From a candidate division FCPU426 bacterium (GTDB taxonomy: Bacteria > Oederibacteriota > Muellerivitia > Muellerivitales > Muellerivitaceae), in the NCBI GenBank assembly GCA_963847625.1, contig CAWKAR010000003.1, forward strand, positions 96,001-160,000: DNA of 64,000 bases, written 5' to 3'. Every line of letters starts with the position of its first letter. Position 1 is the stretch's first letter. Positions 1 through 55,260 of this stretch are shown piece by piece. Both the position numbers and the translations under genes were made by a program. The notes under the pieces are model-generated. The model had not been told where the DNA came from. It searched no databases and worked only from the letters and a program-made list of their open reading frames with translations.

Positions 1-960
1 TGTAATGCTCATAATGACGCCTTCCGGAACGCCCGCCTTCCGCATATTCGTCACCGCGCAGTGGCGAAGATCGTGAAAATGAAAATCCTTCAATCCTGCC
101 TTCCTGCAAGCGGTCTTAAATGCGGACCTCATATCCGTCAGCTTTTGACGCCTATAAGTGAAAACATACGGGCAACCCAAAACCCTCGGGATCTTCTTGA
201 GAATTGTTCTTAGGTTTTCATCAAGGGGTATTTCCCTTTTCGCCTGGGTTTTCGTGTCTTCCGCCTCAAGCGTGATGATCCCTTGTTGAATATCCACTTG
301 CTTAAACTCCAGCCCCATGATTTCACCCTTCCGCATTCCGGTAAAGTAAGCCAGCTCCACAATGGGTTTAAGGTGCATGGGACAATTCTCAATAAGGCTT
401 TGGTATTGCTCAGGGGTAAGGGTCTTATCCCTTGGAGTTTCCTTAAAGAGCCTCAGGCCTTCAAGGGGATTCCTGTCGATTTGCCTGTTTAACAACGCCC
501 TTCGGGCGATGGTCTTCAAGCAAGACAGGTCCCGATTAAGGGTCGTGCCCGTTAATTCCTTCCAGTGTTTATTGCCCTCTTTCCTCCTCCAGTTCAAGTA
601 TTTTTCCACCAGGTCCAGGTTGATGCTCTCAAAAGCCCTGTTGCCGAAAAAAGCCTTGAGATTCCTAACGTAAAACCTGTCCTGCTGGAAACTTTTCTTC
701 CTGGATTCGGAATAGGCCAAAAACGCGTCAGCAGCCTCGTTGAACGTTATTTTCGGCATTTCGACAGCCAAAAACTTGCCTTCAACGATGGTTTGCATGT
801 GCTGGGCCAGCACCTTCTTGGCTTTTTCCAAGGGCACTTGTCCCAACCGGACCCTTTTCCTCTTTCTTAATCCCTCCTCCTGGACCACATAATCCAGATA
901 GTATCCCCCTTCATCCTTTCGAAGATGTTGGGGTAAACCACGAACATTAGGTCTGCTCAT
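1..960 (-). CDS. int: Tyrosine recombinase/phage-type integrase (3' end outside window)
   Basis: Absent from the ORF track because it has no stop in the window. Translated by hand from ATG at 960: MSRPNVRGLPQHLRK...LAYFTGMRKGEIMGL...DTKTQAKREIPL...DFHFHDLRHCAVTNMRKAGV. Catalytic R, K and HxxR motifs are present. ATGA overlap with the upstream excisionase. Confidence 0.95.
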   Translation of the reverse strand, partial: MSRPNVRGLPQHLRKDEGGYYLDYVVQEEGLRKRKRVRLGQVPLEKAKKVLAQHMQTIVEGKFLAVEMPKITFNEAADAFLAYSESRKKSFQQDRFYVRNLKAFFGNRAFESINLDLVEKYLNWRRKEGNKHWKELTGTTLNRDLSCLKTIARRALLNRQIDRNPLEGLRLFKETPRDKTLTPEQYQSLIENCPMHLKPIVELAYFTGMRKGEIMGLEFKQVDIQQGIITLEAEDTKTQAKREIPLDENLRTILKKIPRVLGCPYVFTYRRQKLTDMRSAFKTACRKAGLKDFHFHDLRHCAVTNMRKAGVPEGVIMSIT

Positions 961-10123: not shown

Positions 10124-10136
10124 AACTCACCTTTGA

Positions 10137-16695: not shown

Positions 16696-16725
16696 TTGTC
16701 CAATACACCTCCCCCAAGTGGACAA
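16696..16725 (+). repeat. Cassette-boundary dyad site A
   Basis: TTGTCCAATAC-ACCTCCCC-CAAGTGGACAA. Confidence 0.8.
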
Positions 16726-20441: not shown

Positions 20442-20507
20442 GGTAAACCATTCCTTTTTCCAGTTACTGACTTATTTTTTGAAACCTATAAAACGGTCCC
20501 AGTTCCC

Positions 20508-20771: not shown

Positions 20772-20899
20772 CCCTATTCAAAATGGAAGCTTTATCCCCG
20801 CTTTTCCCTGTCCCTTCACTTTAACTCCATTTTTTTTAATCCCCGTCGCAGTCTTGTAATAAAGCTAGGTTGTCCCTAAATGAATAGAAAGGGGATGCC

Positions 20900-21328
20900 A
20901 TGGAAACAGAAGTTCATGTCAATCAAAGGTCCGTCACGGCATTGCTGATGTTCGACGGGTTTTGCAACATGTGCGGCAGGATCGCCCGGTTCATTATGCG
21001 CCGGGACAAGCACCAGAAATTCATTTTTATCACCCTTCAATCCGGGAGGGCGAAGGAAATTTTACGGATGAATGGCCTGAACGCCTTGGACATGGGTTCC
21101 TTCGTGCTGGTCCAGGACGGCCGGGCCCGCCTTAAGTCGGACGCGATCCTGGGCGTTTTGGAGGAAATGGGAGGCTGGCTGGACTGGATGCGTGTTTTCA
21201 GGCTGGTCCCCGGCCCGTTCCGGGACTGGGTTTACGACCTCATGGCACGCAACCGTTACCGTCTCTTCGGAAAAAGCAACCAATGCATGAGGCCCAATCC
21301 GGAATTCAAAGACCGGTTTCCGGAATAA
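20900..21328 (+). CDS. DCC1-like thiol-disulfide oxidoreductase
   Basis: FDGFCNMC, RDWVYDLMARNRYRLFGK. Confidence 0.9.
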   Translation: METEVHVNQRSVTALLMFDGFCNMCGRIARFIMRRDKHQKFIFITLQSGRAKEILRMNGLNALDMGSFVLVQDGRARLKSDAILGVLEEMGGWLDWMRVFRLVPGPFRDWVYDLMARNRYRLFGKSNQCMRPNPEFKDRFPE

Positions 21329-21389
21329 GGTTCGGAGGTTTGTCGCTTCAAAGGGGCTTTTGGAAAATCCCAGGACCGTGTTCTTCCCT

Positions 21390-22004
21390 TTATGGATTCA
21401 TGCAACCTTGGGCCTTTGACACGACCAAGCGCAGGGACCGCAAGACCGGCCTGCCGCCGGGTAGTTCGCTGGCCATCTCGTAGCGCGGTACGGTGGGTTC
21501 CACCGCGATCGACCATGCGTCGATGCCTCCGGTCATGGACTTGACGTTCGTGAAACCGTGGCCCGCAAAATAAGCGGCGGCATCCAGGCTTCTCTCCCCC
21601 CGGTGGCAGTAAAAGACAATGGGTGTCTTCTTGGGCCAACCGATGATTTCCCTCGCCAAATCCTCGGTGATGAGTACCGCGCCGGGAATTCTGGCCATTT
21701 CCCACTCCTCGGGGGTCCTCACATCGATCAGACGCGGTGGGTGGAGGCTCATCAGGGCCTTCGCCACGTTTATGGGGCTTTCCTGGATGCGTCCTTCATT
21801 TTTTTCGGCTTCCTTGATGAAGCGGATGACCTCGTCGAGGTCGGACAGACCGCGCTTACTCACCACGTCTTCCAGGATGTCCTGCGGCTCGTAACCGCAG
21901 CTGTGGCATCCGCCGATGTGGTAGCGCCGGAAGAGCGCGCGCTGGACGCTCGGATAGGCCTCCAGGACCTCCTGCATGGTACTTCGTTTCGAAATGGTAG
22001 CCAT
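21390..22004 (-). CDS. Rhodanese-domain protein with N-terminal Cys-containing domain
   Basis: YHIGGCHSCG; LIDVRTPEEW...FYCHRGERS...MTGGIDAWS. Confidence 0.85.
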   Translation of the reverse strand: MATISKRSTMQEVLEAYPSVQRALFRRYHIGGCHSCGYEPQDILEDVVSKRGLSDLDEVIRFIKEAEKNEGRIQESPINVAKALMSLHPPRLIDVRTPEEWEMARIPGAVLITEDLAREIIGWPKKTPIVFYCHRGERSLDAAAYFAGHGFTNVKSMTGGIDAWSIAVEPTVPRYEMASELPGGRPVLRSLRLVVSKAQGCMNP

Positions 22005-22100
22005 TGGTTTCTCCCCTTTTTTACCGCTGAATTCCGTACTAAATCGTTATAAAAAATCTACGCCGGCCCTCCCTCGGAAATCAAGAGGTCATCCACGCGT

Positions 22101-23036
22101 TTATCCCTTCGCCTCCTCGAAAAGCCAGGTGGAAAGGTATCGTTCGCCCGTATCCGGTACGATGACGACAATCGTCTTACCCTTGTTTTCGGGCCGCTTG
22201 GCAACTTGAATCGCCGCCCAAACGGCCGCGCCGCAGGAAATGCCGGCCAGGATTCCTTCCTTACGGGCCAGTTGCCGCGCGATCTCCCCGGCGTTCTCGT
22301 GGCTGACCCGGATGACCTCATCGATGATTTCTCGGTTCAGGATAGCCGGGACAAAACCCGCCCCGAGGCCCTGGATTTTGTGGGGTGCCGGCGCCCCGCC
22401 CGACAAAACAGGTGAGGCGTCGGGTTCCACCGCGATAGCCTTGAAGGAAGGTTTGCGCTTCTTGATAACTTCCGCCACTCCCGTGATAGTGCCGCCGGTT
22501 CCCACCCCGGAGATGAGGATGTCCACCTTGCCGTCGGTGTCCGCCCAAATTTCCTCCGCCGTGGTTTTGCGGTGGATTTCGGGGTTCGCGGGATTGTTGA
22601 ATTGCTGGGGGATGAAGCTGTTGGGGGTTTCTTTGGCCAGTTCCTCGGCCTTCGCGATCGCCCCTTTCATTCCCTTCGGCCCCTCGGTCAAGATCAGTTC
22701 GGCGCCAAAAATCTTAAGGAGCTGGCGTCTCTCCAAACTCATGGTTTCCGGCATGGTGAGGATGAGCTTGTACCCCTTGGCGGCGGCCACGAACGCCAGG
22801 GCTATCCCGGTGTTGCCGCTGGTGGGTTCAATGATGACGGTGTCTTTCTTGAGAACCCCGCGCTTCTCGGCATCCTCGATCATTGCCAGGCCAATCCGGT
22901 CCTTCACGCTGGACAAGGGATTGAAGGATTCCAGCTTGGCCAGTACGGTCGCCACCACCCCTTCGGTAACCCGGTTCAACTGCACCAGGGGAGTGCGGCC
23001 GATTGTCTTGGTTATATCGTCGTATATTTTAGCCAT
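22101..23036 (-). CDS. cysK: Cysteine synthase A
   Basis: [50 protein letters not shown]. Confidence 0.97.
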
Positions 23037-23329
23037 GTTTCACCTCATGCTTTCCCGAGCGCTTGCTCGATGTCGGCGGGGGAACCGGCTAAAGGGATGG
23101 TCCCCGCGAAGTGTCGGTCTCCCGGATTAACTCCCGGGGCCGCTCCCGGGTTTTCCAGTGGACTGGGATACCGGTTATGGTGGGTGGTTAATGGGTCCGG
23201 TTTGTCCGGTCCCGATTAAAGGAACAACCATTGAAACACATAAATAATCTGGTCATAACGCCCCAAATATCAAGGGCCCCCGGAAACGCTTGCTCCGGGC
23301 CGTCCGGAGGGGGTATGGATTTAATTTCC

Positions 23330-24001
23330 TTAACGCTGGACCTTAATGTTAATCATGCCATTCTGAAGGGACCCATATAAACGAACCCACAAAGCCAGGT
23401 ACATTTCGGGACCCCTGGCGGCGGAAATATCCCCTAAATCCAAAATATCCGTCCAACCGAGGGACTTGAGAAGACCGGCGACCTTAGCCTTGGCATCCTT
23501 GTCATTACCTGCCATAAAAATGGTGTGATCCCCATTCTTAACTGATTTCGGATTAACCATAACAGGCGCCGCGATGGTATTGAGAGTCTTGACCACTTTG
23601 AGATTGGGAAAGGCATTTTGAATGTTCTCGGCGACTGAGCGGATTTGACCAGCAAGAACCGCCGGCGGCATGCCCTTGCTGAAATCCAACTCATTCGCCG
23701 TATCAATCAGGACTTTCGCACCGACTTGACTTGCTCCGGCCATTTGAAGAGCTTGTACCGATGCCTGTCCGTGGGTGGCATTGATGAGAATTTCCCCATG
23801 GTTTGCGGCCTCTTGAAAAGTGACTACTTTTGCCTTGTTTTGAATTTTCTCCAGCCACTCTTTTAGGCTTCCGGCCATGTTCTTTTTTTCGTCCAGTTTT
23901 TGAGGGTTTCTCGTTCCCAAAACCACGTCATTTCCCAATTCTACCAACCTGATCCCCAAGGTTTGACCCACTACACCTGATCCAATAATGCCAATTTTCA
24001 T
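23330..24001 (-). CDS. NADP oxidoreductase, F420-dependent family
   Basis: GIIGSGVVG, VLIDTANEL, VVKTLNT, LDLGDISAAR. Confidence 0.85.
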   Translation of the reverse strand: MKIGIIGSGVVGQTLGIRLVELGNDVVLGTRNPQKLDEKKNMAGSLKEWLEKIQNKAKVVTFQEAANHGEILINATHGQASVQALQMAGASQVGAKVLIDTANELDFSKGMPPAVLAGQIRSVAENIQNAFPNLKVVKTLNTIAAPVMVNPKSVKNGDHTIFMAGNDKDAKAKVAGLLKSLGWTDILDLGDISAARGPEMYLALWVRLYGSLQNGMINIKVQR

Positions 24002-24106
24002 ATCATTCCCCTTAACCTTCTTAAACTTTTAATTCAGGGTAATACTATTGATAGGTTTTTATGGAAAGCAAGGCAAGATCTGGGATTTATTTTTTTGGTT
24101 GGAGGA

Positions 24107-24136
24107 TCATCCAATGCGGGTCCCCGTTGTGGACGA
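24107..24136 (+). repeat. Cassette-boundary dyad site B
   Basis: TCATCCAATGC-GGGTCCCC-GTTGTGGACGA. Confidence 0.75.
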
Positions 24137-24209
24137 CGAAATATTTTTGATAAGAATTGCCGGACTTGCCTTTCTGATTGTTCATGGAATTTTGGCGAAA
24201 ACGCGGAGG

Positions 24210-24743
24210 TTAACTTTCTTCATTGGAAAGGTTGGGGGTGTCTTTGATGGAGAAGGTCAAAAGTCGGCAAAGCTGGGTTTTTTCCTTTTCTTCCACCAGC
24301 CGGTCTACCACAGGATAAAGTGTCCGGTTTTCCCTTGCTGAATGCTGTTCCATGTATTTTTTGAATTGGGCTTCATCGTCGAATAAGGCGATGATTTCCT
24401 TCCAATTGGAGTCGCTACGGCTCAAGCGGGAGGCCCGCAGGGTGATCCGGTTGAACCATTCCGTGATTTTTTTGTGTTCCGAAGAAATAACCTCGGTTTC
24501 GTCACCCTGGGATTGATCAACCTTTTGGCGGTAGATGGGCAGCAGAATCTCATCTTCTTCCCTCATGTGATTGAAAAGGGCTTTGCCTAAAGTCTTCAAC
24601 ATTGCCTTGGCTTGGATTAAATCGCTCTTGAGGATAGCCACTTGGTGGTTTTCGAACAATTCATGCATTTCACGGTGGATATTGTTCAAGTCTAAGAGAG
24701 TGCGCGATTGGAATTCCATCATTTTAGGTTTTCCTGAATTCAA
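24210..24743 (-). CDS. Hemerythrin/HHE cation-binding domain protein
   Basis: H...HMREEDEILLP...EHKKI...HSARENRTLYP. Confidence 0.8.
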   Translation of the reverse strand: MNSGKPKMMEFQSRTLLDLNNIHREMHELFENHQVAILKSDLIQAKAMLKTLGKALFNHMREEDEILLPIYRQKVDQSQGDETEVISSEHKKITEWFNRITLRASRLSRSDSNWKEIIALFDDEAQFKKYMEQHSARENRTLYPVVDRLVEEKEKTQLCRLLTFSIKDTPNLSNEES

Positions 24744-24829
24744 TATTTCTTATCGTAGTACCCCACCATGTAAATGATCCGATTGACCGGTTTATCCTAA
24801 ATCGCAGACTAACGGACATGGTGCAATAG

Positions 24830-25969
24830 TCAAAAAGGTTGGCCATCGACCGAACCACAGTATTCGTAGACGCGCACATTCACATTTTTCCCTTTCAACT
24901 GCAGCTCGCCGATATCCCTGAAGTCCCGAGGATTCTTGAGCCGCGAATACGTCGATTCGGTGACCAAGATCGAGCCTGGTTTTGCCATGGTTTGCACGCG
25001 CGCCGCCGTATTCACGGGGTCTCCGATGACCATCACTTCTTTTCGCGTTAAGGAACCCACTTCACCCCGGATTACCATCCCGCTGTTGATGCCGATTCGG
25101 ACAGGGAGGGACTGTTTCCCTTCCTGCAGGCGGTCCTCGTCTATCCGGTGGATGATTTTCTGGATGCGGATGCCCGCTTGGACGGCATCGTTGGCGTCAT
25201 TGAAAACGGCCAGCGCGGCATCCCCCATGAACTTATCGATATCCCCACGGCATTCCCGGATCGGCACCTCGCAAAGACTGAATATTGTGTTTAGCGCCCA
25301 GACCACTTCCGAAGGGGTTTCAGTCTCGACGAACGCCGTGAACCCCACGATGTCCAGGAACAAAATCGTCAGATCAAGAACTTCAGCTTTCGCCTCCCGG
25401 GAGGTCGATGCCTGGGTAAAAGCCTCGCTATAGCTGGCGAAGGAGACGTATCTCTTGATGATCTTGTTGAATTTCTGCAGGAGCAGCCGAAGATCCTCTG
25501 CCTTGGTGATATCCCGAAAGTATTCAATGGCCCCTATTATGCGGCCTTCGTTGTCCTTTAGGGGAGTGACGTGGGTGAGGACCGGGAAACGATGTCCCTT
25601 CTTGTGCAACGGAAAAATCTTTGCTTGAATAGGCTTCTCTTCGTCCATAGAACGCTGGAGGGGACAGGATCCCGTACAAAGAAGATTTCCGTTCACGTCA
25701 ATATGGTTGAGGATATTGTCAGAACAAGGACGACCCAGGACCTCCGCGGCGCTGTATCCCGTGATATTCTCGGCACCCTTATTCCAGAAGATGATCCGCC
25801 TCTGCCGATCCGTGACGTAGATACCGTCGAAAGGGACATCCAGCAGCATCTCGACATTTGGAAGTATCCGGATCATTTCAGCAAAGGAATTCGAGTTTAT
25901 TCCTTCACCGGCTCCCCTAATATTTTCTTCCGCCACTGGACCTCCGTTTGTTTCTAAAATCTTTTGCAA
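24830..25969 (-). CDS. PAS-domain class III adenylate/guanylate cyclase
   Basis: PAS (WNKGAENITGYSAAEVLGRPC); FLDIVGFT, DKFMGDA, RIGINSG, IGDPVNTAARVQ, LKGK. Confidence 0.92.
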   Translation of the reverse strand: MQKILETNGGPVAEENIRGAGEGINSNSFAEMIRILPNVEMLLDVPFDGIYVTDRQRRIIFWNKGAENITGYSAAEVLGRPCSDNILNHIDVNGNLLCTGSCPLQRSMDEEKPIQAKIFPLHKKGHRFPVLTHVTPLKDNEGRIIGAIEYFRDITKAEDLRLLLQKFNKIIKRYVSFASYSEAFTQASTSREAKAEVLDLTILFLDIVGFTAFVETETPSEVVWALNTIFSLCEVPIRECRGDIDKFMGDAALAVFNDANDAVQAGIRIQKIIHRIDEDRLQEGKQSLPVRIGINSGMVIRGEVGSLTRKEVMVIGDPVNTAARVQTMAKPGSILVTESTYSRLKNPRDFRDIGELQLKGKNVNVRVYEYCGSVDGQPF

Positions 25970-26059
25970 CCAACTGCATTACACTACAAAGCTATTAACC
26001 GAAATTTCCCAGATAATCTACTCCATTATAGAAGTAAGTTATGAAAGTAAATCCATCAG

Positions 26060-26089
26060 CTGTCAAATCCGGGTCCCTGCCGTGGACAA
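26060..26089 (+). repeat. Cassette-boundary dyad site C
   Basis: CTGTCAAATCC-GGGTCCCT-GCCGTGGACAA. Confidence 0.75.
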
Positions 26090-26267
26090 ACAAAAACATA
26101 AAACTCTTGTATTTTAGCTCTTTGGTAAAACCGGCGGAAAATCTTCGAAAACCAGGGAAAATTGAAGGGTGATTCTGGGTACATCAAGGGAAGAAAAATA
26201 TATCGCGGCGGGCAAGGCCTGGGAATATACATTTCTTGGTGCGGCTGATTTTAAAATATGGCCTAAT

Positions 26268-28706
26268 TTAATTCTGTGTAATTTTCCGGATTAAATAGTT
26301 CCATGTATCCGCAACATAAACGTTTCCAGCGGAATCCACCGCGACTCCATAAGGATGATTAAACGTTGCGCAGGCACCCATTCCGTTCGTGGAGCCCGTA
26401 ATCCCCGCTGATCCCGCCAGGGTCGTTACCACACCTCCAGTGCCGATCACCTTGATCAAATAGTTGTAAGAATCCGCTACATAAACATTCCCCGATGAAT
26501 CGACCGCGATTCCAAAAGGCCAATTGAAACCCCCCGCCAGGAACGTCACCACCCCCGCCGGGCTGATTTCCAGGACATCGTTGTTATACGTATCGGCGAC
26601 GTATACGTTCCCCGATAAATCGACCGCAACTCCCATGGGACTATTAAAGCCTGCGGCGGACCCCGCCAGAGTTGTCACTACCCCCCCGGAGGTAATTTCC
26701 CGGATCATATTGTTGCCGGTATCCGCGACATAAACGTTCCCCGACGAATCCACCGCGACTCCAGAGGGGCTATTGAATGACGCGGCGGTCCCGGTACCGT
26801 TGGCGGAACCCGCAGACCCTGACCCCGCCAGGGTTGTCACCACACCTCCCGGGCTGATTTCCCGGATCATGTTATTTTGGTTATCGGCGACGTAAACATT
26901 TCCGGAAGAATCGACAGCGACACCACGGGGATGTTTAAAAGACGCGGCGGTCCCTGTTCCGTTGGCGGATCCGAAAGGCAATGACCCCGCCAGGGTTGAT
27001 ACCGCGCCCCCGGGGCTGATTTCCAGGATCAGATAATCCCCGACGTAAATATTCCCGGAGGAATCGACCGCGATTCCCCAGGGTTCACTGAACGATGCCG
27101 GGCCCGCCAGGGTCGTTACCACTCGGCCGGAACATGGGGTGTTGGTGGGGGTATTCGTCGGCGTAAAGGTGATTGTCGGGGTTGGCGAAATCGTAATGGT
27201 AAAAGTCATGGTGGGGCTAAAAGTGGCCGTCACATAGGGCCCGCCGATCGGGCAGCTGTTCAACCAGATACTGGCCTGGGCCACCGCGTAATGGGTGGTG
27301 CATTGGTTCGTAAGGACCGTTGGGCAACTGGTATAAGCGGTGCCTCCGTCGATGGCCCCTAATTTGTAACTTGCGCCTGAGGTGTTGAAATGGGGGTTGC
27401 AGGTTGGGTTACAGCTTGTGGCAAGATATGCAAGCCAATAGCTTTTTCCCCCGCCGGGCAGGTAAGTGGGACTTTGCACGTTGAAAAGATTCACGCCGCT
27501 GGTGGTGGTTTGGATGTTTGTTTGGGCTACCAGGGTACCCGGCTGTGCCGAAGCGTCGTTATAGATGGCCATTTGGACGCTGAATCCGGTGTCCAACATG
27601 TTGATTTCCATGGAGTAAACGGAAAGATCGGGCCCGGTGACAGTAATAGGGACAGCTAGGATGTATTGGGCGGGGAAATTCGAGGAACCATCCGCCGTTG
27701 GAAAACCAAAAACCGAATAATAGGGGCAAAGCGGTGTCAAGGGTGTGGTTGGGGTATTGGTGGGGGTGGAAGTGGCGGTGGAGGTTGCGGTGTTGGTGGG
27801 GGTCCCGGTAAAGGTATTGGTCGGGGTAACTGTAGAAGTGTTTGTGAAGGTGTCCGTCATTGTATTAGTCGGAGAATCCGTAGGGGTGTTCGTGTCCGTC
27901 GCTGTCGGTGTCGCCGTGTCGGTTGGAGTTGGTGAGGGTGTATTCGTAGGAGTGGAAGACGGGGTTTCCGTCGGGGTGTTCGTGTCCGTCGCTGTCGGTG
28001 TCGCCGTGTCGGTTGAAGTTGGTGAGGGTGTATCCGTAGGAGTGGAAGACGGGGTTTCCGTCGGGGTGTTCGTGTCCGTCGCTGTCGGTGTCGCCGTGTC
28101 GATTGGAGTTGGTGAGGGTGTATCCGTAGGAGTGGAAGACGGGGTTTCCGTCGGGGTGTTCGTGTCCGTCGCTGTCGGTGTCGCCGTGTCGATTGGAGTT
28201 GGTGAGGGTGTATCCGTAGGAGTGGTCGTCGCGGTATCCGTCAGGGTGTCGGTAGCGGTATTGGTCCCAGTTTCAGTCGAAGTATTCGTTTCCGTATAAG
28301 AGGGTGTTGAAGTCGTTGAACTAGTGGCTGTCGATGTCACCATATTGGTAAAGGTATCAGTCGTCGTGCCGGTAGTCGTAAGGGTATCCGTCATGGTGGG
28401 GGTGTTGGTATAAGTCACCGTGGAGGTGGAAGAAACTGTGGGAGTAGGAGTTTCCGTGATGGTTGAAATTCGAGTCCATGTATTCGTGGCCATGGGGGTG
28501 CTGGTCGGCGTCACGGTAAAGGGAATGGTGAAAATAGCCGTCAAGGTTGGTGTAGGGGTTGATGTTTGTGCCGGTGTATTGGTCGCGGTGGCTTTATTAA
28601 CCGGTGGGGTAGTTGGGCTGTTTGAATTACTGCACGCGATGGGGAAAATCAATAAAAACGATATAAGCAACAAAGCGAACCTGGGAAAATAAAAATAACG
28701 ACGCAT
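26268..28706 (-). CDS. Lipoprotein with Thr/Pro-rich stalk and C-terminal NHL-repeat beta-propeller
   Basis: Lipobox-like PIAC; long TPT linker; repeated [19 protein letters not shown]. Confidence 0.9.
27883..28225. repeat. Intragenic 90-bp tandem repeat (about 3.8 copies; 30-aa Thr/Pro unit)
   Basis: GGGGTGTTCGTGTCCGTCGCTGTCGG... recurs at 27883, 27973, 28063 and 28153. Confidence 0.9.
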
Positions 28707-29024
28707 AGCGGCCTCCCCTTATGCCATTTGTGGATTCTATCCTCGACCCAAATAACTCTCAAGTAGGTTAAGGTAAATTAATCAATGCCGGTTACTTTCT
28801 GTAAGGGGTAAATTGGATAGGAATTTGGGTGTTCGCGGTTAAGTTCGTCTTATCAAAGCCTGGAAAACGAGGGGTTATTTCAAAATTAACGCGGAAAGAA
28901 AAATAATATCCAACAATTCGGCTTCTTGAAATTTTCTATTTTCAAACTGGACCCTTTTACCTCACAGGTGTTTTCTAATGACACTTCCAACAAAATCAAT
29001 ATTTATTCCCTGATCACTTTTAGG

Positions 29025-29054
29025 TTGTCCACAATGGCTCCCCGTCGTGAACAG
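29025..29054 (+). repeat. Cassette-boundary dyad site D
   Basis: TTGTCCACAAT-GGCTCCCC-GTCGTGAACAG. Confidence 0.85.
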
Positions 29055-29127
29055 CATATTTAGGGACAATTATTGAAATGGCATCTTTCCGATATTCTCG
29101 TTTTAAGGTCTATTCAGGGTAAAAAAT

Positions 29128-29649
29128 TTAATATTTACCCCGGTGGACGAGGTCCGACAGCGTTCGCCGTGAAGTCGGTGCCGGTTCTTCATCGGAATAC
29201 CCCAATGGGAGTATGGTCACAGGCCTTATATGGGCTGGAACATCAATGGCCTCACGGACTTTCTCCTCGTTGAAAGCTCCCACCCATACAGTGACTAGAC
29301 CCAATCCCGTCGCGGCAAGCTGGGTGTAGGCCGCGGCAATGGTTGCGTCCTGGACGCTGTACAAATCTTTTCCACGCGCCCCGTACTTGGATCCGCTTCG
29401 TTCCTCGTTTGCGCAAAAAACCAGCGCCAACGGCGCGGGCTTCGCGAACGTCTGGCCCAAAAGGGCTGTCCACAACTGGTTCAGGAGATACGAATCGTCT
29501 ACAACGACTATCTCGTATCCCTGGCTGTCCCCTGCTGAAGGGGCCTGGTTGGCAGCTTCGAGAATTTTATCCAAAATTTCGTTCTCGACTTGTTTTGCCA
29601 GGTAACCCCGAACGGACCGCCTTTTCCAAATGGCTTCAAAAAGTTCCAT
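29128..29649 (-). CDS. Nitroreductase family protein
   Basis: AIWKRRSVRGY, AANQAPSAG, GLGLVTVWVGAF, LPLGY. Confidence 0.92.
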   Translation of the reverse strand: MELFEAIWKRRSVRGYLAKQVENEILDKILEAANQAPSAGDSQGYEIVVVDDSYLLNQLWTALLGQTFAKPAPLALVFCANEERSGSKYGARGKDLYSVQDATIAAAYTQLAATGLGLVTVWVGAFNEEKVREAIDVPAHIRPVTILPLGYSDEEPAPTSRRTLSDLVHRGKY

Positions 29650-29736
29650 GATCCACCCCTTTCCGATCTTCTCCCAATATTCGATTTAATCTTTTATTAA
29701 CTCTACAAAAGTATTCGCCTCTATGGAAAGCCTTAT

Positions 29737-31008
29737 TCATTTTTCGGGATTTTCGGTCAGTGAAAATATTTCATTCAGCATTCGCGCATACTCAAGGCGG
29801 TCCCGATCGGTTTTCACCTTTTTCAGGTTGACCGAGGGCTCGTGTAGCAAGCGCGCCGTCAGATCGTGGACGAGACGTTCCACCGCTTTTCTTTCATTCT
29901 CCGACAGGTTGGGATGTTTTTTCAGGAATTCCTCCCATTCCGCGCGCCTAACTTCCTCAAAGCTGTCTCTCAGCCTCACCACGGTTGGCACCAATTCCAG
30001 CGAGTTGTACCAGGTGCAAAGCTTTTCCACCTCCTCGCGCAGGATAGCCTCGGCCGATTTCACGGCTTTCAACCGCCCGGCGCGGTTGGCTTCCGCGAGG
30101 CCCGCTAAATTGTCGATATTGTAAAGATAGACCGATTCGATTTTCCCCGCCCCGGGGTCCACGTTCCGGGGCACGGCGATATCGATGATTAAGAGGGGTT
30201 TACCATTCCGGTTTTTCATGGCCGTTTCAACTTGTTCCCGGGCCAATTGGAATTTTCCGCCGCCCACCGAAGTCACCACGATGTCCATCCAATCCATCCG
30301 GTTCACCCCCCCCTCCAGGGTCAGGGCTTCACCGCCCAGCTTCGCGGCGAGGATTTTCGCCTTCTCCAGGGTCCTGTTGGCGATGAAAAGACCCTGCACG
30401 CCGGCGTCAGCGAGGTATTTGGCCGTCAGTTCCCCCATCTCACCCGCGCCCAAAAGCAGAACCCGTTGGCTGGACAAGTCGCTGAAAATCTTGCCGGCCA
30501 GGTCCACCGCCACGCTGGAAACGTTGGTGGGCATCCGGGAGATTTCTGTCTGAGCGCGCACCCTCTTGGCGGCGGAAAAGGCCCTGTGGAAAACGCCGTG
30601 TAAAACGGCTCCGACCATGGAGCCGCAATAGGCTTGCCGGAAGGCATCCTTGACCTGTCCGAGGATTTGGGCTTCCCCCACTACCATGGAATCCAGGGAG
30701 CTCGCCACCCGGAAAAGATGGAGAAATGCGTCCGGGCCTTCGTAAATGTAAAAATACTTTTGGATTTCAGGGGGTTTCAACCGGTGGATTCGTCCCAAAA
30801 CCTTCCGGATCCTAGCCAGGCACTGCCTTTCGGCGTCCGTAGCAACATAAAATTCCACCCGGTTGCAAGTGGAAAGGAATACCGCCTCGGCCGCCGCGGG
30901 CTTTAATTCCTCGAGAACTTTCAAAACCTTTTCGGGCGGCAAGGCGTACTTTTCCCGGGTTGGAAGCGGGGCGGTCCTATGATTCATTCCGTAGGCAATG
31001 AACTTCAT
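29737..31008 (-). CDS. hemA: Glutamyl-tRNA reductase
   Basis: GMNHRTAP, LSTCNRVE, SSLDSMVVGEAQILGQVK, GAGEMG, DIAVPRNVD. Confidence 0.97.
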   Translation of the reverse strand: MKFIAYGMNHRTAPLPTREKYALPPEKVLKVLEELKPAAAEAVFLSTCNRVEFYVATDAERQCLARIRKVLGRIHRLKPPEIQKYFYIYEGPDAFLHLFRVASSLDSMVVGEAQILGQVKDAFRQAYCGSMVGAVLHGVFHRAFSAAKRVRAQTEISRMPTNVSSVAVDLAGKIFSDLSSQRVLLLGAGEMGELTAKYLADAGVQGLFIANRTLEKAKILAAKLGGEALTLEGGVNRMDWMDIVVTSVGGGKFQLAREQVETAMKNRNGKPLLIIDIAVPRNVDPGAGKIESVYLYNIDNLAGLAEANRAGRLKAVKSAEAILREEVEKLCTWYNSLELVPTVVRLRDSFEEVRRAEWEEFLKKHPNLSENERKAVERLVHDLTARLLHEPSVNLKKVKTDRDRLEYARMLNEIFSLTENPEK

Positions 31009-31058
31009 CCGGTTTCCTTAGTCGTTGGTTCTCTAAAACATGTGAAAAGTTGATAAAA

Positions 31059-31088
31059 ACCCTCATTCTGCCTCCCCAGCGTGGACAA
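31059..31088 (+). repeat. Cassette-boundary site E (left arm degenerate)
   Basis: ACCCTCATTCT-GCCTCCCC-AGCGTGGACAA. Confidence 0.6.
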
Positions 31089-46389: not shown

Positions 46390-46419
46390 TTGTCCACGAA
46401 GGGTCCCCTTCGTGGACAA
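46390..46419 (+). repeat. Cassette-boundary dyad site F (perfect dyad)
   Basis: TTGTCCACGAAGGG-TC-CCCTTCGTGGACAA: a 14-bp perfect inverted repeat around TC. Confidence 0.9.
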
Positions 46420-46431
46420 TTAAACCTCGGA

Positions 46432-46863
46432 TCAAAACCCCAACTTTTTAAGAAGTTGCGCCGTGGTATACCACTCAATCCCGATTCCCTCAAAATCTCC
46501 GTCGTTAGACCATAAGGGTATTTTCAATTCGAGGGACAAAGCCAATAAATCTATGTCATCCGGGTCTCTTTTTCCAATTTTCCTCCGGGCTAATGCAAAA
46601 GAACCGTGATAATCCTTTAGGCCGTATTCCCTGACAGCCAATAGTTGAAATTGGCTTTCCAGGAGTTCCTCGGCTATGCGATATTTCACGGCCATGATTG
46701 GAAGGTATTCACGCACTTCTTTGATATTCAATGCCGTGGATATGACTTCAAGGTGGGAATGAGTAAAAACTTTGAGGGCAGCCCTGCCGGTCGCGGCGGA
46801 AAGAAGGACGTTAGCGTCCGCGGCGATTTGCCCGGCGGGTTTTTCTCCATGTTTCAAAGTCAT
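46432..46863 (-). CDS. PIN-domain (VapC-like) toxin
   Basis: ADANVLLSA...RDPDDIDLLAL...LWSNDGDF; start uncertain. Confidence 0.88.
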   Translation of the reverse strand: MTLKHGEKPAGQIAADANVLLSAATGRAALKVFTHSHLEVISTALNIKEVREYLPIMAVKYRIAEELLESQFQLLAVREYGLKDYHGSFALARRKIGKRDPDDIDLLALSLELKIPLWSNDGDFEGIGIEWYTTAQLLKKLGF

Positions 46864-47107
46864 GTGTAACCGTCCGCTCACTAACGCCTGATTTTTTGAG
46901 ATGGTTGGAAATGGCGGAGCCAAGGTTCGTTAAAAGTTCCCTCCGCAATTCCAGGGGAAGTTCCTGGGACTTGGACATAGGTACCAATAGGCTGGCGACT
47001 TTCCCGTGTTTGGTCACAAACACGAGATCGTCCCCGCTCAGAAACTCCGGCGCGTGATCCCTAAATTCCCTTACCCCTGCGACTCGCATAAAACCACCTT
47101 CCTGCAA
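46811..47107 (-). CDS. Phd/YefM-like antitoxin
   Basis: MRVAGVREFRDH...VFVTKHGKVASLLVP; overlaps the PIN gene. Confidence 0.8.
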   Translation of the reverse strand: MQEGGFMRVAGVREFRDHAPEFLSGDDLVFVTKHGKVASLLVPMSKSQELPLELRRELLTNLGSAISNHLKKSGVSERTVTHDFETWRKTRRANRRGR

Positions 47108-47185
47108 CCTATGATACTTTCGGCCCTTTCAATATAGACGTTCTTATAATTATGTCAACAATTATGTACACATTACCCATTTTAG

Positions 47186-47240
47186 GTGTCCACGATCCCT
47201 GCCGCTCGCTGCGGTGCGAGCGGATCCCCGTCGCGGACAG
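47186..47240 (+). repeat. Cassette-boundary site G with 25-nt hairpin insert
   Basis: GTGTCCACGAT-[CCCTGCCGCTCGCTGCGGTGCGAGC]-GGATCCCC-GTCGCGGACAG. Confidence 0.75.
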
Positions 47241-47245
47241 CCTCA

Positions 47246-47746
47246 TCACATTAAAATTCGAAGAATCTTCTCAACTACATCTTTCGAGGAACCCGTCCCC
47301 ACTTCCATCTTGTGTTCGTTCTCAAGTGTGACCCTGGCTTTCAGAACCTGATTAATACGGACGGAACTTTCAAAGTCATGATTGCCGCTGTCCCTCATTG
47401 GGTCAATTATTCGCCGCTTCAATTCGTTAGAGTCATCCAGGAAAAAGGTGAGCATCACGCAGGAAGCTTTTGGAAATAATCCTTTAAGCCGAATCATCCG
47501 TTCTGGTTGAACGTCCACCACCAGGATATTCTTGAAGCCGTATTTAAGATACCGTTCCAATGTGAACGCGAGTATTTCCTCGGATAACCGTTCTTCCTCC
47601 TGCGATGCATCCCGCCAACCTTCGTGAAGGTGCGCACTCCGAATCCAATCAAACTCCAAGCATGGCGATTGCAGTTTTTCTTTGAGAAGTCTACTGAGGG
47701 TTGTTTTACCCACTCCGGGTGCACCCACGATAAAAATGATGTCCAT
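47246..47746 (-). CDS. P-loop NTPase/nucleotide kinase-like (AAA_33-type) protein
   Basis: MDIIFIVGAPGVGKTT; ATG at 47746 has an AGGGAG RBS (the track's GTG start lies inside site H). Confidence 0.8.
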   Translation of the reverse strand: MDIIFIVGAPGVGKTTLSRLLKEKLQSPCLEFDWIRSAHLHEGWRDASQEEERLSEEILAFTLERYLKYGFKNILVVDVQPERMIRLKGLFPKASCVMLTFFLDDSNELKRRIIDPMRDSGNHDFESSVRINQVLKARVTLENEHKMEVGTGSSKDVVEKILRILM

Positions 47747-47789
47747 CAATTGCTCCCTAATTTCAGACCTCTCAATCGTCGCTCTTTTT

Positions 47790-47819
47790 CTGTCCACGAC
47801 GGGTCCCCAGAGTGGACAG
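47790..47819 (+). repeat. Cassette-boundary dyad site H
   Basis: CTGTCCACGAC-GGGTCCCC-AGAGTGGACAG. Confidence 0.9.
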
Positions 47820-47897
47820 ACATGTGCCGATCAATTGGCTTATTTTACCTCTTACTGAGCATATAAAAAAATTGTCACGAATAAGCTGTTTTACTGT

Positions 47898-48952
47898 CCC
47901 GAGTTCCATAAGTAAGTGCAACACTTAGTGTCTGAAGAAGGCCGCATGAATAGGATATGCGGCTATGAAAAAGAAATACAAGCATTTAAGCGTTGAAGAA
48001 AGAGATCATTTATCCGTCTTGAAAGGAAAGGGTCTTAGCCTTCGAGCAATTTCACGCGCCTTGAAGAGGTCTCCTTCCACCCTCTCCAGGGAACTCAAGC
48101 GCAATGCTCCCCCTATCCGTTCTGGTTATTATCTTTCTCATCGAGCCCATCAACGGTATGTTGACCGCAACCAACAACGAGCACGCCGTTTACGCCTGAA
48201 AACAAAACGAATTCGTGCCTACGTCCGTCGTCAATTGAAACGAGGCTGGTCTCCAGAACTCATTTCAGGTCGATTAGGTCACCTACGGCCTAAGCAAACC
48301 ATTGGTCCTGAAGCTATCTATCAGTGGGTTTATGCTGAAGCCACTGAGCTGATTCCTTGCCTAGTTCGACACCACCGGCGACGATTCTCATTTGGCCATA
48401 GCCGTAAGCACGCCAAAAACCATATCCCAGGCCGTGTTTCCATCGATAAGCGCTCCGAGATCGCCAATCAACGCAAGCAATTCGGCCATTGGGAAACCGA
48501 CACCATGGTCTCTCGTCAGAGTAAAGTTGCTATGCGGGCTCTCGTCGAGCGTCAAAGCCGTTTTTCCAAGTTGGGAAAGCTCAAACGAAAGACCGCTTGC
48601 CAAATGAGTCATAGCCTCAACCGCGCTTTATGCCGCTTCCCTCAAGACGCCCGCCTGAGTCTGACCTATGACAACGGAACCGAAAACACCAACCACTTGG
48701 AAACCAACCACGTGCTTGGTACAAAATCCTTTTTCTGCGCCCCTTTCCACAGTTGGGAAAAAGGTACGGTGGAAAATACTATCGGTCTTGTCCGCCGCCA
48801 TTTGCCTAAAAAGACTGATCTTGCTAAAGTGTCCTTCAAAGAATTCAGGACCATAGAAAGATGGCTCAATAACAGGCCCAGGAAATGTTTGGGCTTTAAA
48901 ACTCCGGCGGAAGTCTTCCGGCGAAGTGTTGCACTTACTCCGTGAATTCGGC
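47898..48952 (+). mobile_element. IS30-family insertion sequence
   Basis: Imperfect 29-bp terminal IRs sharing AGTAAGTGCAACACTT; TGT flanks both ends (probable target duplication). Confidence 0.85.
47965..48945 (+). CDS. IS30-family DDE transposase
   Basis: HLSVEER, PSTLSRELKRN, GHWETDT, TYDNGTE, SWEKGTVEN, NNRPRKCLGFKTP. Confidence 0.95.
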   Translation: MKKKYKHLSVEERDHLSVLKGKGLSLRAISRALKRSPSTLSRELKRNAPPIRSGYYLSHRAHQRYVDRNQQRARRLRLKTKRIRAYVRRQLKRGWSPELISGRLGHLRPKQTIGPEAIYQWVYAEATELIPCLVRHHRRRFSFGHSRKHAKNHIPGRVSIDKRSEIANQRKQFGHWETDTMVSRQSKVAMRALVERQSRFSKLGKLKRKTACQMSHSLNRALCRFPQDARLSLTYDNGTENTNHLETNHVLGTKSFFCAPFHSWEKGTVENTIGLVRRHLPKKTDLAKVSFKEFRTIERWLNNRPRKCLGFKTPAEVFRRSVALTP

Positions 48953-49033
48953 TGTTTATTTAACACCCAACTAATGGTTTCTGAATGAGCCCCAACCCCT
49001 TGACTCTTTATTTGCATATGCAATAATATATAT

Positions 49034-49333
49034 ATGTTTGATATCCAATTTTCGACCGGTGTCTGGAATGACCTGAAGCCCATCCCCATACGGGGCCAAC
49101 GGATCATCCTCGATGCGATCGAAGAACAACTCACACATCAGCCCGCGACAAAAACAAGGAACCGAAAGATACTATTGAACCTGGTGCCTCCCTGGCAAAA
49201 TATGCCGCCAATATGGGAATTAAGGGTTGATGATTACCGTGTTTTTTACGATGTAGCTGAGGAGGAACAAACGGTGTATGTGCGGACCATCCGTTACAAA
49301 CCGCCTCACAGCCGAACGGAGGATATTTTATGA
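49034..49333 (+). CDS. RelE/ParE-family toxin
   Basis: WELRVDDYRVFYDV; ATGA-coupled to the next gene. Confidence 0.85.
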   Translation: MFDIQFSTGVWNDLKPIPIRGQRIILDAIEEQLTHQPATKTRNRKILLNLVPPWQNMPPIWELRVDDYRVFYDVAEEEQTVYVRTIRYKPPHSRTEDIL

Positions 49334-49578
49334 AAACAGTCAATGTCCGGGATCTTCAGAAAAAGATAAAAGAATTCGTCGATGCCTCCCAAAAGGACCG
49401 TGTGGTATTAACCCGCCATGGCAAGCCGTCAGCCATCCTGGTCGGGGTTGAGGGTGAAGACTGGGAAACGGTTGTGCAGGAAACCAACGCCGAATTTTGG
49501 AATTTAATCCAATCCCGCAGAAAGCAAAAAACCATCCCACTTGCCGTGATGAAAACCCGCTTGAAATTGAAAAAATAG
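49330..49578 (+). CDS. Phd/YefM-family antitoxin
   Basis: MKTVNVRDLQKKI...VVLTRHGKPSAILV. Confidence 0.88.
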   Translation: MKTVNVRDLQKKIKEFVDASQKDRVVLTRHGKPSAILVGVEGEDWETVVQETNAEFWNLIQSRRKQKTIPLAVMKTRLKLKK

Positions 49579-49633
49579 TTGTCCAATCCCACTGCCATTT
49601 GCTGCGGTGCAAATGGCTCCCCGGGTTGGACTC
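49579..49633 (+). repeat. Terminal cassette-boundary site I with 25-nt hairpin insert; tRNA 3'-end-like on the minus strand
   Basis: TTGTCCAATCC-[CACTGCCATTTGCTGCGGTGCAAAT]-GGCTCCCC-GGGTTGGACTC. Confidence 0.75.
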
Positions 49634-49919: not shown

Positions 49920-50462
49920 CAGGTATCAAACGTTAAAAATCTCCTGGATTCCCGCGAGTGGATATCCGTTTCCAAAGAAGGCCTGCAATTGACGCGTCCA
50001 AAAGAACTGTTGATGGAATGGGCGGGCAGGTACCGGTATAACGAAGACAACCATTTCGAGCGTTTTTACACCCTTAAATCTTACGAGGAGCTGATGGAGG
50101 TTTTATCCCGGAATGATTTGGGCTCGCAAATAATCGGTTACACGAATAGGTTCGCGCTGACAAGTTTCTCGGGATCGAATTTGTTATCCCCTTATATTCG
50201 CAGTAAAACCATAAGCTTTTATGTCGATGATATTGATTTTTGGATAGCACGAATGGAACTAAAAAGGGTTGAGAGCGGGGAGAATGTGTTCCTAGTGAGG
50301 CCCTATGACGAAGGGGTTTACTACGGGTCGAAAAACGAAAAGGGGGTGCCTGTGGTTTCCCCCATCCAGTTATACTTGGATTTGAAAACCTCAGGCGGGC
50401 GCGGTGAGGACGCGGCGGAAAATTTATTGAAGGAAGTTATCGAAAAACAATGGCAAATTTAA
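49920..50462 (+). pseudogene. 5'-truncated duplicate of the AbiEi-like antitoxin
   Basis: Translation identical to the C-terminal part of 15298..16395. Confidence 0.9.
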
Positions 50463-51139
50463 GCGGTTATTCACAAGAGGTGGTTGAGGCGGCCAAATCG
50501 GTACTCATCGAGTGCGCCCATCTATTGGGTGAGTACCGTGAAAATATCGTTTTAGTGGGCGGCTGGGTGCCGACGCTCATCCTGCCGGACGCCATGGAAA
50601 ATCATATTGGCAGTACCGACGTTGATTTGGCCTTGGATCACCGGAAACTCCGGGATGCGGGGTATCAAAAAATCGAGAAACTTCTTTTGGGCGCCGGATA
50701 TGAAAGGACCGAGAAGCCGTTTCAATACCAGAAAAAAGTGAGGGGAATACCAGTTTTCGTTGATCTTCTTGCCGGTGAATATTCAGGCACGGGCAAAAGG
50801 CATCGGCATCAAAAAATACAAGGATTGAAAGCCCGTAAGGCGCGCGGTTGCGATTTGGCGTTTGAAAGCCCAGTTGAAATTACAATGGATGGCACCCTTC
50901 CTTCGGGAAGCCAGGATAGGGTTATGATCCGAGTGGCTTCCATTGTGAGTTTTATCGTTATGAAAGGCATGGCTTTGGCCGGTCGTTTCAAACCCAAGGA
51001 TGCCTATGACATCTATTTTTGCGTGCTTTATTATCCGGGCGGGTTCAAGGGTCTTGCCGCCGAGTTTAAAGGTCATGCCGATAACCTATTGGTCAAAGAA
51101 GGTTTGGAAAAAATCCGTAATCCGGAATTTCCCAGATGA
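50450..51139 (+). pseudogene. 3'-truncated duplicate of the AbiEii-like toxin
   Basis: Identical to 14510..15310 up to ...EKIRN, then reads into the IS end (PEFPR*). Confidence 0.9.
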
Positions 51140-52825: not shown

Positions 52826-53641
52826 TTTAAATACCATTATTTTACCGTTTTGGGAAAGATGGCGGGAATTCTTTGAAAATCCGACTCCGACCGGAGGAAA
52901 ACCCCATTTGAAAGCCAATTTTGAATTTTGAGTTTTAAATTCTAAATTGTGGTTAGATTTCCGTGCCAATTATCCTTAAGACAGTTAATGAATTTGGTAC
53001 GGTACAGGCCGCATGAGGCTACCAGCCGAGTGCGAGGGTTGCCGGGGCAGATTTATATCAAATCTGTACCAGCCTCGCTATTAGTTTTATGGAAGGCCTA
53101 TGCGTCGAGGCTTCATGCCGACCAACCATAAAACTTAAGGGAGGCCGGTATAGTACCGATTTACTTCAATTATCCCGGGCATAGCCCGGGAATAACAAAT
53201 AGTTGAATCGGCACAAGCCGAGATGCGTTTCTGGTGTGCCGGGCCATCCATTAAAAAGCCCGGCCTGGCACGCATTTCGGAAATCCTCAATAATTCAACA
53301 TTTAACATTGAGAATTTAGAATTGCCGTTCCAGCCCATGCGGGTAGGACCCCGGCCTCTGCGGGCAGGGATGTGGGCGGTTTATCCCCCATACCGACGGA
53401 TGCCGCCGGAAATGTGGGCGGTTTATCTCCCCTACCCGCAAATGACACCGGGAATGTGGGCGGTTTATCTCCCCTGTCGGCAAATGACACTAGGAATGTG
53501 GGCAGTTTATCTCCCCCTACCGGCAAATGACACTAGGAATGTGGGCAGTTTATCTCCCCCTACCGGCAAATGACACTGGGAATGTGGGCAGTTTATCTCC
53601 CCTGTCGGCAGATGACACCGGGAATGTGGGCAGTTTATCTC

Positions 53642-54997
53642 GGTAGTGTATTTTTGGGGGGTGTAAAAAGAAGCGGGCGTAACATGGTGTTTGTCTAGAA
53701 CGCCATATCCTTTTTGTGAAAGGAAGTTACGCCCATGAAGAATATACACCTAGCCTTACAGGCCTTGGCAAGAGAGAAAACTCAAGCCTGGGTGAAATCT
53801 GTGGTTGGAAGCCGTGAGGTCGGCGAATGGGTAGGAGAAGCCCTGAATCAACAACTTTCGGAGGCTTTCAACGCCCAGTTGAGGAAAGAACGGGATGAAG
53901 CGTTGAATCGCCAGCCATATGAAAGGCAGGAAGGAAGCCGGTATCGCAATGGGTTCAAGCGGATCCTAGTTGCTGGATTTCTGGGACCTTTGGTGCTGAA
54001 AAAGCCAGTTTTGAGGAAAGGCGGATTTGTTTCGGAAACTCTGACGGCATTGAGAGATGGAAGCCAAGCCTTGGTGGGATTTCTGGGAATGAAGTTCTGG
54101 CTAAAGGGGGCTTCCACCCGGTCGGTGGCGGCAGGGATAAACGAGGCCTTTGGAACTAAGTGGACGGCCAATCACATTAGCCAGATGACCAATGCCTTAG
54201 AACCTACCCTGGAAGCCTGGGCTAAACGGCTATTACCCACAGGGATTCAATACTTGTACTTGGATGCGCTTTACCTGACGGTCAGGCGACAGGAAGCTGG
54301 TGTGAAACAGGCTTTGCTGGTGGCTATCGGGGTGGACGGGAACCTGAAGAGGCATTTTCTGGGGTACTTGGTGGGAGACCGTGAAAGTGAGGCGGCCTGG
54401 GAAGCCATGTTGGAAGACTTGTTGAACAGAGGCTTAGACAGGAAAAGCTTACGAATGGTGGTATCCGACGCCCACGGTGGGATTGTCGCGGCGGTGGAAA
54501 ATCGTCTTGGGATCCCCCATCAATTATGCTTGGTACACAAGATGGAGAACGTCCGGTGTCGAGTGGCCCAGAAGGACAGAAAGGCATTCATGGCGGATTT
54601 CAAGGCGGTGTATTGGGCCGAGAGTCGAGAAGAACGCCTTGGTGGCACTAGGAAGTCTCAAGGCTAAGTGGTCCAAAACCTATCCCAAAGCAGTGGAGAT
54701 GGCAGAGGAAAAATTCGACTCCTATACGCAGTTTTTCCAGGAAGACCGGAAGTTTTGGAAGATTACCCGCACCAGCAACCTAATCGAACGGCTTAACGAG
54801 GAGTTAAGGAAAAGGCTGAGGCCAGCGGGGATGATGCAGAACGAGCTGGAGATCGCTAAGTTGGTGTGGGGGGTAACCGAAACCCAACAACAAAATTGGA
54901 ACAAGACTAAAGTCTACACCTCAAGAAGGGAGGCGGAGGTTCAAGCTGCTTGATTAAGACGCCCGTGGAAATTTACACCCAAAATATTGACGCAGGG
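53642..54997 (+). mobile_element. IS256-family insertion sequence
   Basis: Imperfect IRs (GGTAGTGTA...GGGTGTAAA / TTTACACCC...GACGCAGGG); TTTATCTC duplicated at 53634-53641 and 54998-55005. Confidence 0.85.
53735..54953 (+). pseudogene. IS256 (Mutator) transposase, frameshifted near 54630
   Basis: YRNGF, YLYLDAL, GDRESEAAW, VSDAHGG, QLCLVHK in frame 1; RTSNLIERLNEELRKR in the shifted frame. Confidence 0.88.
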
Positions 54998-55189
54998 TTT
55001 ATCTCCCCCTACCGGCAAATGACACTAGGAATGTGGGCAGTTTATCTCCCCCTACCGGCAAATGACACTAGGAATGTGGGCAGTTTATCTCCCCCTACCG
55101 GCAAATGACACTAGGAATGTGGGCAGTTTATCTCCCCCTACCGGCAAATGACACTGGGAATGTGGGCAGTTTATCTCCCCTGCCGACGA

Positions 55190-55260
55190 GTTATCTCCCT
55201 AATGCCGCTGGGTTATCTCCCTAATGCCGCTGGGTTATCTCACATGCCGCCGGGTTATCC
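55190..55260. repeat. Short ~22-bp tandem repeat (about 3 copies)
   Basis: GTTATCTCCCTAATGCCGCTGG x2 plus degenerate copies; shares TTATCTCCC with the longer repeat. Confidence 0.75.

Follow-up and report, generated by a model that had tools for sequence, protein, structure and literature searches.

Introduction

Tyrosine recombinase systems are known to capture and shuffle single-gene cassettes in an open-ended way, and the attC site of integrons folds, varies in length and has extrahelical bases. Small mobile modules bounded by 28-bp sites are known as pdif modules; they are served in trans by XerCD, which are tyrosine enzymes, and their sites have two different arms and a 6-bp centre. In SCC composite islands, rows of modules have been built by a serine recombinase. 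Integrons are described by the integrase IntI and the sites attI and attC (PMC3001079), and for CALINs we follow the definition given in the available part of PMC7923331. The large serine integrases (LI/A118, phiC31, Bxb1 and SPbeta) combine a catalytic with a recombinase domain, have a 2-bp centre and use distinct attP and attB sites, as far as the available parts of PMC3783163 and PMC5499577 describe them. Lastly, the ssrA islands of Dehalococcoides (DsiB; available part of PMC3146451) and the SCC composite islands are large rows of serine-recombinase-built modules, some without an enzyme of their own; they use an enzyme of 540 residues, and their modules pile up at a single gene, each behind direct repeats.

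Here we describe a row of short palindromic sites in a window of 64,000 nt (the whole stretch of DNA that was analysed) from the source genome G000. One of them, site F at 46390..46419 on the + strand, is the boundary of a swappable cassette, and we consider it likely that a 276-residue serine recombinase, encoded on another contig, cuts and rejoins such sites at their central TC.

The system shares with integrons and CALINs a recombinase gene beside the first site, a co-oriented array of mostly one-gene cassettes, the occurrence of arrays that lack an enzyme, a cargo with many unknown proteins, GNAT acetyltransferases and toxin-antitoxin pairs, and group II introns at the sites. It differs from integrons in having a serine enzyme in place of the tyrosine recombinase IntI, in its short, symmetric site of fixed length, whereas attC varies in length, and in that the cassette genes are oriented towards the recombinase gene and no Pc-like array promoter was found (sigma-70-like promoters in L001:6700-10730: none). 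Its 28-bp sites bound small mobile modules that would be served in trans, as in pdif, and differ from pdif in their identical arms and the linked serine gene. With the large serine integrases it has in common the catalytic and recombinase domains, a fold match and, probably, a 2-bp centre (available parts of PMC3783163 and PMC5499577); unlike them, it has a short enzyme without zinc ribbon or coiled coil, and symmetric 28-30-bp sites present in many copies per genome. Compared with the DsiB and SCC islands, its arrays are dispersed, its sites palindromic and their median spacing 850 bp.

Palindromic sites in the window

Site F consists of a left arm at 46390-46403, TTGTCCACGAAGGG, a central TC at 46404-46405 and a right arm at 46406-46419, CCCTTCGTGGACAA; direct reading confirms the description of it in the initial annotation as a perfect 14-bp inverted repeat around TC (14+TC+14). 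The nine cores which that annotation had listed (starting at 16697, 24108, 26061, 29026, 31060, 46391, 47212, 47791 and 49605) are all present and co-oriented on the + strand. The first of the array, at 16697..16724, has the core ACC-TC-CCC; it is followed by pattern matches with GGG-TC-CCC (24108..24135), GGG-TC-CCT (26061..26088) and GGC-TC-CCC (29026..29053), and GGG-TC-CCC recurs in site F (46391) and at 47791..47818. At 31060..31087 there is only a half-site, in which the right arm is intact and an unrelated left side ends in GCC-TC, adjoining the upstream region of a hemA copy. Two sites are expanded by a 25-nt hairpin inside the left arm: that at 47187..47239 has a 10-nt outer left arm, the insert at 47197-47221, a GGA-TC-CCC core and an intact right arm, and that at 49580..49633 has a GGC-TC-CCC core. 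Searching with the site pattern gave eight matches in the window (six sites, two of them on both strands) and none in 100 shuffles, and the genome holds 46 copies at 20 bits or more, mostly in same-strand clusters, against one and none in two shuffles.

The triplet to the left of TC does vary in the window, as had been noted, but three of the variable triplets do not belong to ordinary left arms, two being the ends of the hairpins inserted in the expanded sites and one lying in the half-site. Similarly, TC is constant in the nine window sites, but its constancy there is insufficient to single it out, as had been proposed, because the CCC to its right is equally invariant; nor does it hold throughout the wider family. 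Among 437 sites in which the central 8 bases were masked during the search and the strand was assigned with the full matrix, and which come from stretches picked by a pattern that itself contains GGTCCCC, the centre is TC in 417 and something else in 20, CCC to its right is as conserved (98%), and 324 have the full GGG-TC-CCC core.

The site family across genomes

A set of 490 sites was assembled from the source genome and from fetched stretches of 13 relatives; here too, CCC to the right of TC is conserved as well as TC itself. The sites are described by a fixed 28-bp matrix whose consensus is a perfect palindrome and form one symmetric class of 28-30 bp, with conservation stopping approximately 14-15 bp from TC. 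Neighbouring sites less than 6 kb apart are co-oriented in 376 of 385 cases and opposed in nine, with a median spacing of 850 bp. Lone opposed sites in otherwise uniform arrays were seen at L164:3806, L132:16031 and L163:18536.

Sites occur in 28 of the 31 genomes of this uncultured bacterial family, in hundreds of copies and in clusters spread over many contigs. Outside the family the exact pattern is absent from 68 other genomes of the phylum (0/68), a single copy with one mismatch being present in G031, and viral contigs gave no exact match. Of 74 right arms whose left side is unrelated, 46 retain TC and 10 have GA (shuffle: 0), the GA centre corresponding to a left arm read from the opposite strand. 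In G001 (twice) and G002, a shared conserved sequence lies directly against GGG-TC where the outer left arm would be (L139:5643 and 9551, L152).

Cassettes and their mobility

Site F forms the left boundary of a mobile cassette that extends from TC to TC (46404..47226, - strand) and encodes a PIN-domain protein (ORF 46432-46923, -; Pfam PIN_2) with a small partner ORF upstream (46811-47107, -). Homology to relatives begins at this site. Copies of the toxin-antitoxin unit are present in 10 of 30 relatives (79-87%), with none of 110 flank comparisons similar; eight copies have an in-register left site (one degenerate), seven have one on the right, in one more copy the right site is 63 nt out, and one has no site at all. 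Since the unit starting at site F recurs in 10 relatives beside unrelated neighbours, site F is a real cassette boundary. This cassette is followed by a single-gene interval with an AAA-domain ORF (47246..47797, -), a 74% copy of which in G019 has no nearby site, and by a ParE/Phd-type toxin-antitoxin cassette (47804..49619, +; ORFs 49034-49333 and 49330-49578) that is interrupted by a multi-copy IS at 47897-48952.

A single ORF is found in 222 of the 377 intervals between sites. Where ORFs are present (372 intervals), one strand carries the longest in 351; when an interval contains one gene, its start is close to one site (median 41 nt) and its stop to the other (median 18 nt). Of 39 full-length cassette pairs (28 clusters), 36 have dissimilar sequences on either side, including identical copies in different genera. 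Among 140 sampled proteins of the 197 single-gene cassettes outside G000, 85 had no Pfam match and eight were GNAT acetyltransferases. Two long intervals in the window (7.4 and 15.3 kb) carry many stress and respiratory genes, whose homologues elsewhere are mostly without sites. Second copies, 84-95% identical and in the same genome, exist for the cargo at 18105-31021 (sod, ferritin, cysK, hemerythrin, PAS cyclase, hemA). The array region is also flanked by an AbiE-type pair and an inverted partial copy of it with 1202 identical bp (14510-16395 and 49920-51139).

No site had a joint in four low-share contig runs from a single study, and neither a circle nor an excision joint was seen; one 329-nt contig in these runs, at a depth of 3.6, matched only 46391-46504 and is too weak to count.

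Location of the exchange

Junctions were compared between sites with flanks at least 98% alike, in pairs that share members and, for the left-shared set, after pairs flanked by introns or IS had been dropped. The left arm is identical in 15/15 pairs that share the left neighbour, with the opposite arm differing in 8/15, and the right arm is identical in 11/13 pairs that share the right neighbour, with the opposite arm differing in 11/13. Positions 11-13 vary between copies of one right-hand cassette: the cupin unit to the right of 16697..16724, preceded there by ACC, recurs on contig C21 behind GGC-TC, and other cassettes show TCC/GGG, GGC/GGG and AGG/GGG. The site at 47791 has GGG where G001 has GTT, homology to the G001 copy beginning at 47804, the T of TC. 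Half-sites likewise have varied triplets before TC, and a rare base at position 18 moves with the right-hand cassette; position 19 differs in 2/13 of the near-identical right-shared pairs and in 7/28 of all right-shared pairs. Judged from these junctions, exchange is bracketed to site positions 13-18, and from this bracket together with the dyad symmetry we infer that the central TC is the crossover. The arms also change by routes other than exchange at the centre, because the left arm belonging to one cassette (L318) varies between homologous copies, being ACC in one genome and GGG in others. At the hemA capture point, homology to a site-less G001 copy fades at approximately 31060, before TC, which does not help to place the exchange.

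The palindromes might instead be terminators, operators or REP-like repeats, with homologous recombination or retro-elements shuffling the units. Such a reading would suit the strong hairpin that site F can form (z -7) and the insertion of group II introns and small hairpins at sites. However, homology between cassettes ends within the site at either side, half-sites break at TC, most cassettes have no intron, and a conserved recombinase occupies a fixed place beside the first site, making this the least probable of the readings considered and one to which we give very little weight.

The short serine recombinase

As the initial annotation had stated, the window contains no serine recombinase: neither the Resolvase nor the Recombinase family was matched in the 72 scanned ORFs (of 213 listed), and none of the matches to these families in the genome lies on the contig of the window. 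The gene with both domains beside the motif, for which that annotation had proposed to search, is found on another contig (G000:C61:35485-36312). It encodes 276 residues with the Resolvase and Recombinase domains only (PF00239, 1.5e-22; PF07508, 2.6e-11, residues 187-273), and is followed directly after its stop by a site and then by three single genes that point back at it.

The gene is intact in G002, G018, G025 and G026 besides G000, and partial in G019, G028 and G026, giving 7 of the 31 family genomes, five of them with an intact copy. G026 has three copies, two of them partial, that of G028 is frameshifted, and the site in G018 has a degenerate right arm. The copies of relatives end at the same point and a site follows 9-37 nt later behind every one of them (G000 +9 nt; G025, G026 and the partial copy of G019 +15; G002 +35). 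At 106 further loci (L198-L303), sites were found only at the short form L198. Tails of the short gene, 16-26 codons long, precede the site of orphan arrays in G002, G018 and G019; no recombinase remnant precedes the first site of the window. With the short gene in 7 of 31 genomes and sites in 28, either orphan arrays predominate or the gene has been missed in assembly.

The short family comprises 19 clusters of 275-283 residues (70-100%), with the next match at 60%, and the catalytic motifs YVRVSS and DRLYR are invariant in 19/19 clusters. All short forms lack zinc ribbon and coiled coil, their stop falling 0-7 codons past the aligned region, and the zinc ribbon family PF13408 had no match on P0001-P0019. 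Values of dN/dS over 21 pairs of short forms (0.05-0.18) indicate that the family is under purifying selection. In a quick tree of 111 rows the short forms make up one clade of 22 rows (SH-aLRT 100), whose sister is L200, a full-length integrase at tRNA-Asn (support 97). Two other short rows, L267 and L269, are placed elsewhere in the tree, have no site and were treated as one-off breaks. The predicted model of the 276-residue protein (pLDDT 71, pTM 0.44) matches serine integrases in Foldseek, and the protein is 56% identical to one full-length integrase of the same genome. ArdC or RadC genes lie upstream of the short gene in three relatives, which suggests that it may ride on a mobile carrier.

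Rutherford et al. (PMC3783163) give, in the available part of their paper, a contact area of 13 bp for the recombinase domain, a value that fits the 13-14-bp arms and the end of conservation 14-15 bp from TC. In the same account, LI integrase without its coiled coil excised all site pairs and integrated only at background level, without its zinc domain it bound approximately 25-fold more weakly, and loss of the coiled coil removed site selectivity, which would fit symmetric arms of 13-14 bp; the available part of Gupta et al. (PMC5499577) agrees on the effects of domain loss. The poor integration and weak binding of these mutants are the chief objection to the role proposed for the short enzyme. 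The net charge of residues 165-270 is +16 to +25 in seven short forms versus +6 to +8 in six close full-length relatives, and a more basic recombinase domain may possibly offset the lost zinc ribbon.

The strongest rival to exchange and insertion by the short enzyme alone accepts serine exchange at TC and makes this enzyme only an unregulated resolvase, with insertion requiring a full-length tRNA-targeting relative or a mixed complex. It draws on the coiled-coil deletion that excises without integrating (PMC3783163, available part), on the full-length relatives at 49-61% in G000, on G001, which has sites and only full-length enzymes, and on the resemblance of the site arm to the tRNA-Asn target. 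We nevertheless regard it as unlikely, since the full-length relatives have no adjoining arrays and four site-rich genomes that are 89-99% complete (G006, G011, G022 and G023) have no Recombinase-domain match, that is, neither enzyme form. In addition, copies of one platform in G026 carry different first cassettes, and therefore insertion at the site behind the short gene is needed. The best reading is the one proposed in the initial annotation, in which a serine recombinase works in trans and exchanges strands at TC, with the correction that this enzyme ends after the recombinase domain and does not have the full length of a large serine recombinase.

The tyrosine integrase of the window

The same annotation had allowed for a homology-tolerant tyrosine enzyme and had pointed to the integrase at 1..960 (- strand), which belongs to a conjugative element and is followed by an excisionase-like HTH gene and by VirB4- and VirB6-like genes. 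Its 3' end lies beside a tRNA-Leu(CAG) gene outside the window. The integrase is on the 5' side of this tRNA (L012, near G000:C3:95530-95960), a 32-bp direct repeat lies between the two genes, and a copy of the 5' part of the tRNA with its upstream DNA is present on C29 (G000:C29:59148-59233).

A tyrosine recombinase, whether this integrase, XerCD or another, could act on an 11+6+11 or 10+8+10 site: the 28 bp can be parsed as 11+6+11, the hairpin inserts fall between positions 10 and 11, and tyrosine genes, read by eye, lie 1.4-5.5 kb from sites in G025, G001, G018 and G002. However, these genes differ in size and in distance to the site, and in G000, where 17 positions of tyrosine recombinases were compared, none comes within 14 kb of one. 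There is no IntI, as 0 of 18 matches to TIGR02249 exceeded the 265-bit cut-off (best 45 bits), and positions 11-13 follow the neighbour. The 1-960 gene itself ends beside tRNA-Leu, with the partial tRNA-Leu copy on C29, and is not implicated as the site enzyme. We therefore consider a tyrosine enzyme highly improbable; of the two types named in the initial annotation, the serine type is favoured by its linked gene, and no candidate enzyme was found for the other.

Proposed origin and mechanism of enzyme and site

Full-length relatives of the short enzyme run into tRNA 3' ends and have no arrays. The tRNA-Asn beside the L200 integrase has the same 3' end as that of G000. When 43 tRNAs were scored against the right half of the site, this end alone exceeded zero, with TC in register; the last 20 nt of the G000 tRNA-Asn are identical, as reverse complement, to 49614-49633 of the window. 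Among the 490 left arms, 21 belong to a type that differs from the tRNA-Asn end at 2/13 bases, and the main consensus differs at 4/13; the G000 tRNA-Asn contig, C4, has no site. We infer that the short enzyme arose from a truncated tRNA-Asn-targeting integrase and the site from a mirrored tRNA arm.

For the serine enzyme acting at TC, the following course may be proposed. A dimer would bind each site through its recombinase domains, with a 13-bp footprint, and cleavage would leave a 2-nt overhang at TC, followed by rotation. Because the enzyme has no coiled coil, any site could pair with any other, so that an excised cassette would form a circle and insert again at whichever site it meets, with the asymmetric TC keeping its orientation. 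The array of the window, which lacks such a gene, would depend on enzyme supplied in trans. More broadly, and with somewhat less assurance than for site F itself, we think it probable that a tRNA-targeting phage-type integrase which has lost its directionality module is the engine of a second, independently evolved integron. This enzyme alone would excise and insert cassettes at tRNA-derived 30-bp palindromes, travel on conjugative elements and serve orphan arrays in trans, and the system would have its own intron and repeat parasites.

Relation to described systems

The system would work like an integron, yet it has no IntI, no attC-type site and no Pc-like promoter that could be found, and it has the core of a large serine integrase without the defining tail. 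No description of it was found in the literature consulted, which consisted mainly of titles and abstract openings, with thin coverage of subscription papers. If the short enzyme cuts at TC, this would be integron-like gene capture from different parts. The integron design would then have arisen a second time, from unrelated components and by steps that can be traced, in which an integrase was truncated and a tRNA arm made into a palindrome. The system would also allow a test of whether integration by a serine integrase is possible when the coiled coil is missing, as it was not for the laboratory deletion mutant. On a practical level, the 276-residue enzyme and its 30-bp site would be small enough to serve as a compact tool, and in the arrays there is an unmined pool of mostly unknown genes (85 of the 140 sampled being without a Pfam match).

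Elements inserted at sites and further observations

Group II introns that encode a reverse transcriptase are inserted 2 nt outside sites (L129:4074-6001, 8643-10570 and 13743-15670; L125:7603-9530), a parallel to the IIC-attC introns; several copies are present in G026, with similar ends in G025 and G018. Hairpins of 24-25 nt with TGCGGT-like or CGGGGG loops are inserted between left-arm positions 10 and 11, in the window (47197-47221 and 49590-49614), on contigs C13, C51 and C63 of G000, and in G001, G022 and G025; the same hairpins also occur free elsewhere in the genome.

Capture of a Shine-Dalgarno sequence was considered for the xCC triplets, which read GGAGG on the coding strand, and rejected: a start 4-14 nt later is not enriched (ATG in 0/14 half-sites and 1/11 full sites; p 0.08 for any start). 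Units of approximately 90-130 bp without an ORF lie between a site and a half-site on contigs of G000 (C21:61733-61890, C27:124200-124400 and C27:262550-262735) and at L122:6850-6968; where the left side of the half-site ends, it resembles the tail of a gene for a full-length integrase, and the units are possibly promoter cassettes. Finally, the window contains tandem arrays of a 42-43-bp unit at 53367-53650 and 54963-55228, split by a Mutator-family transposase.
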